Shown: one piece after another, positions 6,034 to 57,598 of the stretch
Position numbering within the stretch: the first letter of the stretch is position 1
Layout: the number at the start of each line of letters is the position of its first letter
Origin: an uncultured Candidatus Saccharibacteria bacterium
Lineage (GTDB): Bacteria > Patescibacteriota > Minisyncoccia > Phycocordibacterales > G965230995
Assembly (NCBI GenBank): GCA_965230995.1
Contig: OZ246398.1
Span: forward strand, 656,213 to 720,212
Direction of reading: 5' to 3'
DNA: 64,000 bases
The notes under the pieces: generated by a model
Told to the model about the DNA's origin: nothing
Seen by the model: only the letters and a program-made list of their open reading frames with translations
The model's database searches: none
Translations under genes and position numbers: made by a program

Positions 6034-6067
6034 TGTATTAGAAAAGGGCGATACGGTAATCGCCCCT

Positions 6068-6301
6068 TCACTTCTTCACCCCCTTTTGTTCGTTGTCAAA
6101 GAAAGTACCCGGAACAACTGGACAGCCATCAGCAAAAACCGGAATGACCTCATCCCAATAGATAGGCGGAAACAAGCCGTCATCTTTTTGGGCCTTGAGA
6201 ATCACCCAATCACTCCATCTGAAATCATTGCTGATGTTCGGGACAGGCACAAGTGTGTGGATCTCCCTAATCGTAAGGAACTGTTCGTTCAAGGTTATCA
6301 C
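6068..6301 (-). CDS. hypothetical small protein (about 74-77 aa) in GC-rich island A
   Basis: ORF with GTG start, or a TTG at 6292 with a GGGGG Shine-Dalgarno 10 nt upstream. Followed by hairpin GGGCGAT-acggta-ATCGCCC plus T-run at 6044..6066. No recognisable domain. Confidence 0.45.
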   Translation of the reverse strand: MITLNEQFLTIREIHTLVPVPNISNDFRWSDWVILKAQKDDGLFPPIYWDEVIPVFADGCPVVPGTFFDNEQKGVKK

Positions 6302-6403
6302 CCCCTTTCGTCTGTAAGGATATCAGATTGATATTCATTTTCAATATAAATACAATAAAATGGCTAGAAATAATGATTAAATTATTAAATATGGAATAAA
6401 ATA

Positions 6404-6440
6404 TTTGACATATATTCATATATTATGTTATTATATGTAA
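6404..6440 (+). promoter_or_regulatory. sigma70-like promoter (TTGACA-17-TTATTA) driving the island A secreted-protein gene, followed by about 120-nt leader
   Basis: TTGACAtatattcatatattatgTTATTA. The long structured 5'UTR includes the hairpin AAGACG-ctaacc-CGTCTT. Confidence 0.5.
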
Positions 6441-6559
6441 TGAAGAAGACGCTAACCCGTCTTTTAATTTTGGACAGAACCTTAACAACGGAGGTCATAG
6501 AGACCTACACCCGTGAGAAGTTCCTGACACGAACCAAACCAACAGAGAAAGGTTCAGTA

Positions 6560-54892: not shown

Positions 54893-54921
54893 AAAGCCCC
54901 GCGCGTAGCGCGGGGCTTTTT
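54893..54921. terminator. bidirectional rho-independent terminator (AAAAGCCCCGCGC-gta-GCGCGGGGCTTTT)
   Basis: 13-bp GC stem with flanking A and T runs between thrS and gyrB. Confidence 0.8.
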
Positions 54922-54924
54922 GTT

Positions 54925-57018
54925 TTAAATATCCAATCTCGCCTCTTTTGCATTTGACTGTATAAATGTTTTTCTGGCTGGAACGTCTGTACCCATCAAA
55001 ACATCGAATATCTTGTCTGCAGAAACGGCATCTTCAACGGTAACCAATTTTAACACCCTAGCCTTTGGATCCATTGTTGTCTCCCATAATTCTTCAGCGT
55101 TCATTTCTCCGAGACCTTTGTATCTTTGTACTCTGACTTTTGAAGCTTTCTTTTGGACTGCCTCTTCGTTTTCTTCTTCACCCTCAGCATCTTCTGATTC
55201 AACCACCATTTCTTCTTTGCCTACTAGTTTGTTTTTTTCTTCATCAGAATACGCATAAGAGATTGCTTTACCCTTTTGGATTTTATATAAAGGTGGCTGA
55301 GCAATATAAATATATCCAGCATCGATAAGTGGTCTAAAATAACGGTAGAATAATGTCAAAAGCAATGTCCTAATGTGTGCACCGTCAACGTCGGCATCGG
55401 TTGCTATGATGACTTTGTGGTATCGCAATTTTTCAATTTCGAATGTATCACCAATTGCAGTTCCAAGAGCTACCACAAGATTTCTAATTTGTTCTGATCC
55501 GAGCATTCTATCCAATCTAGCTCTTTCAATGTTTAGAATCTTACCTCGCAAAGGCAGAATTGCCTGCGTTCTCCTGTCTCGTCCCATCTTTGCAGTACCA
55601 CCAGCAGAGTCTCCCTCTACAATAAACAATTCTGATTCGTTGGCGCTCTTTGTCTGACAATCAGCAAGCTTTCCAGGCAATGTCATACCGTCCAAGGCCC
55701 CTTTTCGAAGCACGGAATCTTTTGCTGCTTTTGCTGCTTTTCTAGCCTTTAGGGCAAGAAGAGATTTGTTGATTATATTTTTTGCATCATCTGGGTGCTC
55801 TTCGAGATATTCGGCAAAAGCCTCACCAAATATCGTTGTCACCATTCCTTGCGCTTCCATAGAACCGAGCTTTGCTTTTGTTTGACCTTCGAATTGAATC
55901 TCTCGCAATTTAACAGAAATAGCACACGTTAGACCTTCGAGCACATCGTCTCCGGTAAAGTTCTCGTCTTTTTCTTTTAGAATGTTGTTCTTTCTACCAT
56001 ATGCATTGAGAGTTCTCGTAAGAGTTGTTTTGAAACCTGTTACGTGAGTACCGCCCTCTCCGTTATAAATATTGTTTGCAAAAGGCAAGATTCTCGAAGA
56101 AATATCATCAACATATTGTAAAGACACTTCTACGCTTTCATATTCGTTTACTGGTTTTTCAACGTAAAAAATATTTTTATGTACTGGTTTAAATATCTGG
56201 TTGTAGAATTTTACAAGAGAAACTAGACCTCCTTCGAAATAGAAAGACATTGAAGGAACATCGAGTCCCAAGTCCTTGAGATAAAATTCACCCTCAATAT
56301 CGAGATCTCCCTCGTATTCTCTGGCGTCAATTACTGTAATTCGAAGACCTTTGACCAAATATGCTTGCTGTCTCAAATGAGAAACAATTCTCTTCCATTC
56401 AAATTTTACTTCTTTAAATATTTCTATGTCTGGTTTAAAAGACACAACTGTTCCGTGTTTGTCTGATTTGCCAATCTTTTTAACAAGAGCCTTTCTCTTT
56501 CCTTGAGAATATTCCTGCATATGAATATTACCCTCGCTGTGGACTTCGACTTTACAGAAAACAGATAGTGCGTTTACAACTGAAGCACCCACACCGTGAA
56601 GACCTCCGGAGACTTTGTAACCCTCACCGCCAAATTTTCCTCCGGCATGGAGAGTTGTCATAATTGTCTCGAGAGCAGATACGCCAGTTTTTTTATGTAT
56701 TCCAACAGGAATACCACGACCGTTATCTACTACTCTAATTATATCACCAGGAAGTATTGCAACTTCGATTTCATTTGCATGACCGTTCATCGCCTCGTCT
56801 CTCGAGTTGTCGAATATTTCCCAAATCAAATGATGAAGACCATCTGGTCCTGTTGTACCAATATACATTCCAGGCCTTTTTCGTACCGGTTCAAGTCCTT
56901 CGAGGACTGTGATATCGTCTGCCCCATACGAGCCCTTTGGTTTTTTTTCCTCTTTATCTTTAGCCATTTTTTGTGAATTTAATGGGATAATTATAGCAAA
57001 TTTTAGAGTATTCCGCAA
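54925..57018 (-). CDS. gyrB: type IIA topoisomerase ATPase subunit (DNA gyrase subunit B)
   Basis: GHKL ATPase motifs (LHHLIWEIFDNSRDE, GLHGVGASVVNA), TOPRIM EGDSAGG, C-terminal GyrB tail. Likely true start at MAKDKEE (about 56967). Confidence 0.85.
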   Translation of the reverse strand: MRNTLKFAIIIPLNSQKMAKDKEEKKPKGSYGADDITVLEGLEPVRKRPGMYIGTTGPDGLHHLIWEIFDNSRDEAMNGHANEIEVAILPGDIIRVVDNGRGIPVGIHKKTGVSALETIMTTLHAGGKFGGEGYKVSGGLHGVGASVVNALSVFCKVEVHSEGNIHMQEYSQGKRKALVKKIGKSDKHGTVVSFKPDIEIFKEVKFEWKRIVSHLRQQAYLVKGLRITVIDAREYEGDLDIEGEFYLKDLGLDVPSMSFYFEGGLVSLVKFYNQIFKPVHKNIFYVEKPVNEYESVEVSLQYVDDISSRILPFANNIYNGEGGTHVTGFKTTLTRTLNAYGRKNNILKEKDENFTGDDVLEGLTCAISVKLREIQFEGQTKAKLGSMEAQGMVTTIFGEAFAEYLEEHPDDAKNIINKSLLALKARKAAKAAKDSVLRKGALDGMTLPGKLADCQTKSANESELFIVEGDSAGGTAKMGRDRRTQAILPLRGKILNIERARLDRMLGSEQIRNLVVALGTAIGDTFEIEKLRYHKVIIATDADVDGAHIRTLLLTLFYRYFRPLIDAGYIYIAQPPLYKIQKGKAISYAYSDEEKNKLVGKEEMVVESEDAEGEEENEEAVQKKASKVRVQRYKGLGEMNAEELWETTMDPKARVLKLVTVEDAVSADKIFDVLMGTDVPARKTFIQSNAKEARLDI

Positions 57019-57044
57019 AAGAACTTTTCCACTTTTTAAGCTAT

Positions 57045-57598
57045 GAAAGGCTTTACATTATTGACTGATGTGGTACAATAGAGAACCAGAAGCAAGGCTA
57101 CATGCTCACTCGGGTATGGTCTTGTTTAGAAAATTCTTTTTTTGAGAGGGCTACAAAATGGCCAAAAAAAAATCAGAGCCACTGGCAGTACAGAGGATGA
57201 AAACCTTCGTAGGAAGGTTTCCCGTCCTGGTCTCAAGCCGTGAAAAGCTCTCGGAGCTTCGGGTCCTCCAGTTGGTACGCCAGTCCTTGCTGGCCCCCGG
57301 CAATGACACCGTCGACACCAGGACCATCGACGAACTGGTGGAGGAGGGTTTGTCCGTAGATGCCGCGTACAGGTCACTTTTGTACCCGACCGGTACGGGC
57401 TACGAAGTGGACGAGAAGCTGTTCAACAATTTCTACACCATCTACGGTGCGTTGAAGTTGATGAAGCGGCGCCCAGACATGTGTACCACCAGAACCTTCA
57501 GTGTGAAGAAGGTGGTAGCCTGAAGCATGGTCTAGCCACCCATGCAGGAGTAAGCCGCGCAATCCCCCGGGAAAGTGCGGCTTCAACGTTTATACTAG
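57045..57598. other. GC-rich island E (single-gene foreign-composition cassette between gyrB and pheT)
   Basis: About 55% GC. Promoter TTTACA-16-TGgTACAAT. Confidence 0.6.
57158..57523 (+). CDS. hypothetical protein (121 aa) in GC-rich island E
   Basis: ORF with GAGAGG Shine-Dalgarno. Minus-strand ORFs here are judged shadow ORFs. No recognisable domain. Confidence 0.5.
   Translation: MAKKKSEPLAVQRMKTFVGRFPVLVSSREKLSELRVLQLVRQSLLAPGNDTVDTRTIDELVEEGLSVDAAYRSLLYPTGTGYEVDEKLFNNFYTIYGALKLMKRRPDMCTTRTFSVKKVVA

Follow-up and report, generated by a model that had tools for sequence, protein, structure and literature searches.

How does a Patescibacteria genome of 37% GC come to carry small GC-rich blocks, each lodged between intact core genes? 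The question is posed by the 64,000-nucleotide stretch of contig OZ246398.1 analysed here, which we call the window: its mean GC is 0.371, and five blocks, A to E, stand out from it. An initial annotation proposed that the five may be dispersed parts of one acquired system, explained by a common donor, by cassette-style mobilisation or by a distributed multi-component system, for example in defence or effector-immunity. The comparisons described below point to a different answer, which we consider probable: the blocks are separate, long-standing slots for accessory genes, with contents that are replaced by allelic recombination and that encode envelope or host-interaction proteins, and they do not form one acquired system.

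A GC scan of the window returned the following blocks, and beyond them no stretch of at least 300 nucleotides (nt) with GC more than 0.11 above the mean:

6489-7706, GC block A, GC 0.538
18001-18408, GC block B, GC 0.527
42045-42412, GC block C, GC 0.516
48401-48892, GC block D, GC 0.553
57136-57620, GC block E, GC 0.532

Most of the window is taken up by core genes (RpoB, RpoC, RpoD, DnaG, an AddA-like helicase-nuclease, ATP synthase, enolase, BipA, RNase R, an SMC-like protein, DnaE, ThrRS, GyrB, PheST and HisRS). The genes next to the islands, which encode ExoX, DUF378, enolase, BipA, RNase R, the SMC-like protein, an ABC ATPase, RNase HII, GyrB and PheT, are full length and syntenic in relatives. 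The GC-rich blocks between intact core genes that the initial annotation described are real; we measure them at 52-55% GC, with the part of island A that holds the gene A1 (6013-6331) at merely 0.46. B, D and E were found as exact sequences on 4-5 contigs, the junctions of B and D could be read directly from Logan assemblies made separately from different SRA runs, and all five slots show the same architecture, with conserved ends, in relatives from other metagenomes. With the junctions of B and D present in assemblies independent of one another, the blocks are not the assembly artefacts or chimeras that the initial annotation had named as a possible refutation.

GC-rich patches in AT-rich genomes are often structured RNAs, and for that reason a structured RNA was tested first. 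This candidate was rejected: at gathering thresholds Rfam matched only a group I intron outside the islands, ARAGORN called no tRNA in the window, and the distribution of GC over codon positions is that of coding sequence. Each block contains one clear open reading frame (ORF), and island A contains two. The GC excess sits in the third codon position (GC3), which ranges from 0.55 to 0.78 in the six ORFs against 0.22-0.34 in 39 host genes, with the first and second positions (GC1 and GC2) near host values; because of this pattern we take the islands to be coding. Leaders reach just 0.40-0.46 GC, against 0.325 in host intergenic sequence, so the enrichment is concentrated in the coding sequence itself. 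The protein set is as first described, with one secreted protein (A2, one N-terminal hydrophobic segment), one membrane protein (D, 4-5 segments) and soluble proteins without hydrophobic segments (A1, B, C and E).

Slots with conserved ends and changing genes

Each slot lies between the same core genes in related genomes of this Paceibacteria-like lineage, owns its regulatory ends (a sigma-70-type promoter and/or a terminator hairpin), and holds one small GC3-rich ORF, or two in slot A. What fills the slot in relatives is in some cases a homologue that evolves very fast (B, C, A2) and in others an unrelated gene (slots A, D and E of the nearest relatives). The closest species representatives are Paceibacteria/Parcubacteria metagenome-assembled genomes with DnaE identity of at most 66%; related loci are denoted here by L numbers. 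The features of slot B, between the genes for enolase and BipA, are:

17930-17975, plus strand, promoter TTGATT-17-TATAGT (9/12 sigma-70-like match) with the motif ATAGGTTCGAAAC at the predicted +1 (17963-17975)
18012-18383, plus strand, B, acidic soluble protein of 123 amino acids (aa), GC3 0.685
18399-18432, plus strand, B terminator, canonical, 8-bp stem and T-tail

Same-slot homologues of B are 38-40% identical at L089 and ~18% identical at L109; in these two relatives enolase is 83-84% and BipA 90-91% identical. The 5' flank, including the promoter and AAGGTTCGAAAC, is near-identical in the window, L089 and L109, and L109 departs from the other two just past the motif; every allele has its own terminator stem, and homology between genomes restarts at TTTTTGATA. 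When L089 and L109 are compared in 60-nt windows, identity is 90-100% over enolase and BipA and 32-52% over the ~480 bp cassette, with transitions of ~60 nt on each side. In a more distant relative, L110, slot B is empty, with 481 bp of AT-rich sequence.

Slot A, between the ExoX and DUF378 genes, holds the divergent pair A1 and A2:

~6040-6071, A1 hairpin and T-tract
6068-6301, minus strand, A1, acidic soluble protein of 77 aa, GC3 0.55, divergent partner of A2
6344-6317, minus strand, weak promoter-like site of A1
6405-6434, plus strand, slot A promoter TTGACA-18-TATTAT ahead of A2 (11/12 sigma-70-like match)
6405-6494, plus strand, the same promoter with a conserved leader ending in GGAGGT, aligned in L084 and L085 despite different coding sequence
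6560-7645, plus strand, A2, secreted all-beta protein of 361 aa with a signal-like hydrophobic segment at residues 4-25, GC3 0.78
7649-7729, plus strand, slot A 3' element, a pair of hairpins separating A2 from the convergent ExoX gene

L084 and L085, with ExoX genes of 80-84% nucleotide identity, carry in the same orientation a gene for a secreted protein of 327-348 aa (GC 0.56-0.57), and similarity between this gene and A2 is undetectable. DNA homology to the window covers the promoter and leader down to GGAGGT (~6405-6494), breaks, and restarts immediately after the stop codon to run through 7649-7729. Between L084 and L085 themselves, slot A shows the same sharp drop in identity, over 60-nt windows, as slot B. 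The 3' hairpins are kept in the window, L084 (1826-1934), L085 (1240-1346) and L086 (2034-2125), with compensatory changes in 4 of 17 stem pairs. Conservation of this element exceeds that of the coding sequence, and it may act as a bidirectional terminator or form a small structured RNA. The transcription unit of A2 ends in a hairpin without a good T-tail. At the position of A1, L084 and L085 have genes for 70-77 aa in the same orientation, 45% identical to one another, whose likeness to A1 is visible by eye only and is not significant (E = 0.22).

A word-indexed search of 5.8 billion protein clusters with A2 found only A2 itself. A full HMMER scan of 1.8 billion representatives gave two remote homologues, P0023 (28% identity) and P0024 (30%), and A2 is not a true orphan. 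The gene for P0023 lies in a more distant relative, L086, in the same order of DUF378, promoter, A2-like gene and 3' hairpins, with GC3 of 0.56 in the A2-like gene against 0.27 in the neighbouring DUF378 gene. A three-sequence AlphaFold model of A2 is all-beta, with a mean predicted local distance difference test score (pLDDT) of 57.5 and a core of ~65-85. In Foldseek its best PDB matches come from adhesins and pilins of Gram-positive bacteria (PrgB, ClfB, antigen I/II, BcpA and EbpB) and are to tandem Ig-like domains, with E of 1e-6 to 1e-3 but template modelling scores (TM-scores) of only 0.2-0.27, a weak lead that A2 may be adhesin- or pilin-like.

In slot E, between GyrB and PheT, and slot D, between the ABC ATPase and RNase HII, the gene itself differs between the window and its close relative L088:

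57052-57079, plus strand, slot E promoter TTTACA-16-TACAAT (10/12), conserved in L088 ahead of an unrelated ORF
57158-57523, plus strand, E, basic soluble protein of 121 aa, GC3 0.73
57552-57595, plus strand, slot E 3' hairpin AAGCCGC...GCGGCTT with the conserved tail CAACGTTTATAC, kept in L088, not a canonical T-tail terminator
48417-48453, minus strand, D terminator, canonical, 15-bp stem and T-tail
48466-48879, minus strand, D, membrane protein of 137 aa with 4-5 hydrophobic segments, GC3 0.65
48924-48952, minus strand, D promoter TTGACG-17-TATCAT (10/12, TG-extended)

The E-slot ORF of L088 is GC-rich (~86 aa, GC3 0.69), unrelated to E and in the same orientation, and the promoter is conserved between the two genomes, as is the hairpin GCCGC...GCGGCTTCAACGT. 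In slot D, L088 has an unrelated soluble gene (~133 aa, GC3 0.64) with a homologue of the D terminator hairpin, including compensatory changes, downstream of it; its promoter differs, and the terminator alone is conserved in this slot. A promoter or leader and a 3' hairpin or T-tract are thus kept in slots A, B and E together with other coding sequence, and therefore these ends belong to the slot and not to the incoming gene. The earlier description of each cassette as a unit with its own promoter and terminator is right in that sigma-70-like promoters precede A2, B, D and E and canonical terminators follow B, C and D, but in A, B and E the ends do not travel with the gene.

Slot C, between RNase R and the SMC-like gene, holds a more conserved unit:

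42016-42037, minus strand, C terminator, canonical stem and T-tail, conserved in L088
42063-42419, minus strand, C, basic protein of 118 aa (pI 10), GC3 0.64, no hydrophobic segment
42456-42468, minus strand, C leader motif ATAGGTTCGAAAC, abutting a TATAAAT -10-like box

The orthologue of C in L088 (DnaE 87% identical) lies at 3798-4157 on the minus strand, with 50-52% protein identity and GC3 of 0.63, between RNase R and SMC-like genes that are 70-75% identical. The whole unit, consisting of the promoter region (a weaker candidate only), the TGGTTCGAAAC leader, the coding sequence and the terminator, aligns between the two genomes. In many more distant relatives slot C is empty (20-160 bp), and in L041, L042 and L050 it holds other GC-rich ORFs. 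A single-sequence model of C (pLDDT 66) has the order alpha-alpha-beta-beta-alpha-alpha-alpha, and a fold search with it gave no significant match.

The alleles are also older than the genes around them. Between L089 and L109, synonymous divergence (dS) is 0.35 and nonsynonymous divergence (dN) 0.011 in enolase, against 1.59 and 0.90 in B. The dN/dS of B is 0.45-0.57 against 0.03-0.08 in the flanking genes. Between L084 and L085, dS is 0.24-0.26 in ExoX and DUF378, 0.64 in the slot-A gene and 1.40 in the A1-like gene, the last against ~0.25 in its flanks. It is because dS is higher in B, the A1-like gene and the slot-A gene than in their flanks that the cassette alleles are placed before the flanks in age. 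Over the slot genes dN/dS is 0.21-0.57, against 0.03-0.08 in host genes, and the slot genes are under relaxed or diversifying evolution.

Searches of Pfam, PHROGs, PADLOC and NCBIfam with the six island proteins and four slot proteins of relatives returned nothing significant; D has a sub-threshold match to Pfam DUF5904 (E 0.008) and found only itself in the word-indexed search of protein clusters. Scans of IMG/VR with the A2-family and C-family alignments gave no relatives, and PDB sequence searches with the B-family and C-family profiles gave no match. Terminal or flanking repeats of the islands are at chance level only, the island-adjacent ORF lists and repeat scans contain no recombinase or mobility gene, and the 64 kb window contains no second or template copy of an island sequence. 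All-against-all BLAST of 48 GC3-rich ORFs from all loci returned same-slot pairs only. Recombination machinery in the window is represented by the AddA-like UvrD/PD-(D/E)XK protein. A literature search for GC-rich hypervariable genes in Patescibacteria found nothing relevant.

Some GC-rich sequence near the slots resembles them. Between BipA and TruB, at 20423-20542 (plus strand), a hydrophobic mini-ORF of 39 aa (GC3 0.575) has promoter-like and hairpin elements of its own, and in L089 the position is occupied by a GC-rich insert of 2.4 kb with two genes (L089 4088-6054); this may be a sixth, smaller slot of the same kind. Between RNase R and its C-like gene, L088 has an extra orphan of 103 aa (3290-3601, minus strand, GC3 0.50), absent from the window and flanked by the perfect palindrome TACATAGGACTACCCTATGTCATAGGGTAGTCCTATGTA. 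The more distant Paceibacteria relatives L041 (2071-16048), L042 (2496-9874) and L050 (2670-9780), of 42-45% GC, likewise have small islets among their core genes, several in number, in which orphan ORFs lie in sequence of 52-58% GC, and the phenomenon therefore seems widespread in the clade.

Competing explanations

The reading as long-standing slots supposes that alleles would be replaced among co-existing strains when the conserved flanks or the regulatory ends recombine with their homologues, needing no dedicated mobility genes, and that diversifying or frequency-dependent selection on envelope or host-interaction proteins would keep many alleles circulating. The comparisons show the slots, their conserved ends, the sharp limits of divergence, the greater age of the alleles and their relaxed or diversifying evolution; we infer both the swapping by recombination and this functional class, which the slot genes probably share. 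Several points weigh against it. Recombination was not directly observed, and its clearest proof, an identical allele shared by two different backgrounds, was not found. Values of dS for short genes are noisy and near saturation. If the alleles circulate only among AT-rich relatives, their GC3-richness needs an extra cause. No slot protein has a family match in Pfam, NCBIfam, PHROGs or PADLOC, and the fold match of A2 has a low TM-score. Finally, each slot has one to three close relatives, several of them from the same metagenome.

A more far-reaching version is possible, and we put it forward tentatively: the clade would keep single-gene 'expression sockets', each with a conserved promoter, in some cases with GGTTCGAAAC at +1, and a conserved terminator, into which unrelated or hyper-divergent ORFs are swapped, and GC3 would be actively maintained by GC-biased gene conversion or synonymous selection. 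If true, this would be a previously undescribed architecture for diversifying the surface and host-interaction genes of ultra-small symbionts. Patescibacteria have tiny genomes and depend on hosts, and little is known of how their exposed proteins vary; here, at fixed positions amid genes for RNA polymerase, GyrB and DnaE, a small gene is replaced or evolves fast as its promoter and terminator stay. The slots yield candidate genes for interaction with hosts or phages together with a testable cis-element, GGTTCGAAAC, and their GC3-richness in an AT-rich genome offers a test case for GC-biased gene conversion versus synonymous-site selection in bacteria. They are also a caution for genome scans, in that compositional islands need not be recent horizontal transfers. 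Interest would rise if GC3 maintenance or the socket architecture proved general in Patescibacteria.

Recent, independent transfers of single genes from one GC-rich donor (~55-60% GC), each with its own promoter and terminator, would account for several observations and are nevertheless unlikely. The genes are alike in GC3 and codon usage and opposite to the host, most of them are orphans, and close relatives differ in what their slots contain. Relative synonymous codon usage correlates at r of 0.34-0.66 among five of the six island genes, and with the host at -0.27 to -0.51; A1 correlates weakly with the other island genes (0.17) and with the host (0.10), and the grouping largely restates GC3. 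GC-normalised dinucleotide signatures place islands no closer to each other than host fragments are to each other and are uninformative at 400-1200 nt. Against a donor stand the homologues that relatives carry in the same slots for B, C and A2, and promoters and terminators are kept in relatives with other genes and so did not arrive with the gene. No GC-rich donor was found in the 5.8 billion clusters, the 1.8 billion representatives or IMG/VR.

Composition itself argues in the same direction. At four-fold sites of host genes, the window retains a correlation of strong and weak base states of just 0.08-0.09 with L088 or L089. A single import of B or C before the lineages split, followed by drift towards host composition, would need an ancestral GC3 of 1.45-1.77; as this is impossible, the GC3 of these genes is not the relic of one old import. 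Both members of the B and C pairs are still at 0.63-0.69. Across 62 related loci, GC1 and the amino-acid fractions GARP (Gly/Ala/Arg/Pro) and FYMINK (Phe/Tyr/Met/Ile/Asn/Lys) track GC3, and at GC3 of 0.68 the regression predicts GC1 of 0.63, GARP of 0.28 and FYMINK of 0.23. The six island genes have 0.52, 0.23 and 0.285, nearer to the prediction at host GC3 (0.50, 0.21 and 0.31), a comparison that is suggestive only because the regression was built on long housekeeping genes. In all the genomes examined the slot genes are rich in GC3, a codon usage that persists in them and is not the fading trace of one import. Possible causes are an unsampled GC-richer pool, GC-biased gene conversion at recombination hot spots and selection on synonymous sites.

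The leader motif raises two further explanations. ATAGGTTCGAAAC occurs exactly twice in the window, at 17963 (plus strand) and 42456 (minus strand), in the leaders of B and C. GGTTCGAAAC likewise has two copies in the window, and six in 120 fetched loci (~1.8 Mb), two of which are other assemblies of the window's own B. For B the motif is found in the window and in the alleles of L089 and L109, for C in the window and in the C-like gene of L088, and it also precedes the unrelated gene in slot D of L088. These six non-redundant sites are without exception cassette leaders, and there is none elsewhere in the ~1.8 Mb. The motif is kept between orthologues and across unrelated cassettes; the B/C leader motif of the initial annotation proves both genuine and specific to cassettes. 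It starts 6 nt past the -10 hexamer in four of the six sites, and for the two C genes this distance is 8-9 nt, a spacing that places it at or beside the predicted transcription start; transcripts would be predicted to start at (A)GGUUCGAAAC. Within the window the leaders of A1, A2, D and E lack it, as do the empty slot B of L110 and distant relatives.

One use of such a motif would be as the recombination or insertion site of a site-specific, integron-like cassette system, which we regard as quite unlikely. In slot B the motif is the exact 5' point at which L109 leaves L089 and the window, and it heads unrelated cassettes in three different slots. However, no integrase adjoins any slot, no cassette family occurs in two different slots, and the motif is missing from the empty slot of L110 and from the distant relatives. 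Its position relative to the -10 box instead fits a transcription-start or operator role. The slots also lack a common 3' site, and their flanking repeats do not exceed chance.

The alternative use, in a distributed multi-component system for defence or effector-immunity whose dispersed parts are co-regulated in trans, is very unlikely. Such a system would explain the conserved motif that B and C have in common where transcription is predicted to start, and also the mixture of secreted, membrane and small soluble proteins. Its parts are not found together, however: L088 has a C-like gene with unrelated genes in place of D and E, L084 and L085 have an unrelated gene in place of A2, and the B alleles of sister strains are nearly unrelated, the B-like protein of L109 being ~18% identical to that of the window. 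There is no match in Pfam or NCBIfam and no significant match among the PADLOC-DB defence profiles (the best is PycTM, E = 0.03, for D), and the motif is confined to the leaders of B and C in the window. Both the single acquired system and the distributed system thus fail the co-occurrence test that the initial annotation set. What does survive is a common style, made plausible together with some co-regulation by the shared codon composition, the self-contained units and the leader motif. The motif fits a shared regulatory or 5'-end element, for which the basic protein C is a candidate binding protein, and its presence in B, C and cassettes of relatives suggests that this subset may be regulated together.

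Targeted, GC-biased hypermutation confined to the cassette transcription units, with divergence arising in situ, is highly improbable. Divergence does begin at the predicted transcription start and stop at the terminator, dS and dN are both raised, and the GC excess lies at synonymous sites, with amino-acid usage like that of the host. Yet the sequences of B, D and E do not change among 4-5 assemblies of several runs, with no variants of at least 90% identity; slot D encodes a membrane protein in one genome and a soluble one in the other, and lengths and indels differ; the window holds no template-like second copy; and at four-fold sites divergence between the homologues of B and of C does not exceed that of host genes. 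An assembly chimera or contaminating GC-rich reads, for which only the abrupt change of composition speaks, can be dismissed with near certainty on the independently assembled B and D junctions and the shared architecture and conserved ends of all five slots in relatives from other metagenomes.

Other features of the window

Outside the islands, a tRNA-Asn(GUU) gene at 4731-5127 (minus strand) is split by a group I intron (Rfam RF00028, 4779-5071, 65 bits), and this interruption is why ARAGORN reported no tRNA in the window. The gene is uninterrupted in L084 (4464-4539). A 16-nt direct duplicate of the tRNA-Asn 3' end, at 4515-4530 and 4732-4747, brackets ~200 bp, like the att scar of an integrated element, and at the end of its tRNA-Asn gene L084 has an element with a serine recombinase and restriction-modification genes (4525-11127). 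Directly upstream of the tRNA-Asn 5' exon lies an ORF for a GIY-YIG nuclease of 97 aa (5107-5400, minus strand, Pfam E = 1e-11), which has ahead of it a degenerate copy of the 5' end of the tRNA gene (~5378-5404) and may be a homing-endonuclease-type insertion. Terminator hairpins of the CACAAAAACCGC...GCGGTTTTTGTG type occur at the distant loci 6009-6040 and 38932-38963, with 91% identity over 32 nt; their likeness is probably convergent or due to chance.

Comparison with known systems

Among known systems, the anti-phage defence systems of PADLOC-DB have no component profile that matches the islands significantly, PycTM at E = 0.03 for D being the nearest, and a diversity-generating retroelement, which pairs a template repeat with a variable repeat and has a reverse transcriptase, differs in that no second copy of an island sequence lies within the 64 kb. 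Integron cassettes, which lack promoters, end in an attC site of shared structure and are arrayed beside intI/attI/Pc, are similar in being small, mostly single-ORF, of unknown function and variable between strains. The slots differ from them in having no attC, intI/attI or array, in being dispersed with their own promoters, and in having no integrase nearby. Their 3' hairpins vary from slot to slot and are terminator-like, and the slot A stem GTTAGC...GCTAAC runs in the opposite order to the layout of attC core sites.

Replacement-type flexible genomic islands, as described by Rodriguez-Valera and co-workers, reportedly carry non-homologous, strain-specific content at the same position, often for exposed structures, under frequency-dependent selection. 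The slots share the constant chromosomal position and the strain-specific, non-homologous content. Flexible genomic islands are usually multi-gene and not GC-richer than the core, in contrast to slots of ~0.5-1.7 kb that hold one gene (two in A) and are GC3-enriched.

Phage morons are single-gene, independent transcription units with their own promoter and terminator and deviant GC (Juhala/Hendrix; reviewed in PMC3594210). A slot gene resembles a moron in being a unit with its own promoter and terminator and deviant GC between conserved genes, although the C promoter is weak and the A2 and E terminators are non-canonical. Morons reside in phage or prophage genomes among phage genes, but the flanks of the slots are core cellular genes (RNA polymerase, GyrB, DnaE, enolase, BipA and others), PHROGs and IMG/VR hold no relatives of the slot proteins, and the promoter and terminator persist when the gene is swapped, three respects in which slots and morons differ.

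The replacement reading likens the slots to the minimal mobile element of Neisseria, which, in the definition as quoted in PMC3787668, is a variable region between specific conserved flanks that has no mobility genes of its own and is exchanged by recombination in the flanks (2007). In the five slots compared, variable regions likewise lie between specific conserved genes in the closest relatives. Composition and gene content vary, with unrelated genes in A, D and E and empty slots in L110 and many distant relatives, and the slots have neither mobility genes nor terminal repeats and hold genes mostly of unknown function. The sharp drops in identity and the old alleles fit exchange through the flanks, but no identical allele was found in two backgrounds, and transformation would be the presumed route. 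The slots depart from the minimal mobile element in being single genes whose conserved arms include the promoter or leader and the terminator, and in belonging to an ultra-small Patescibacterium, where the slot genes lie uniformly above the GC3 of the genome.

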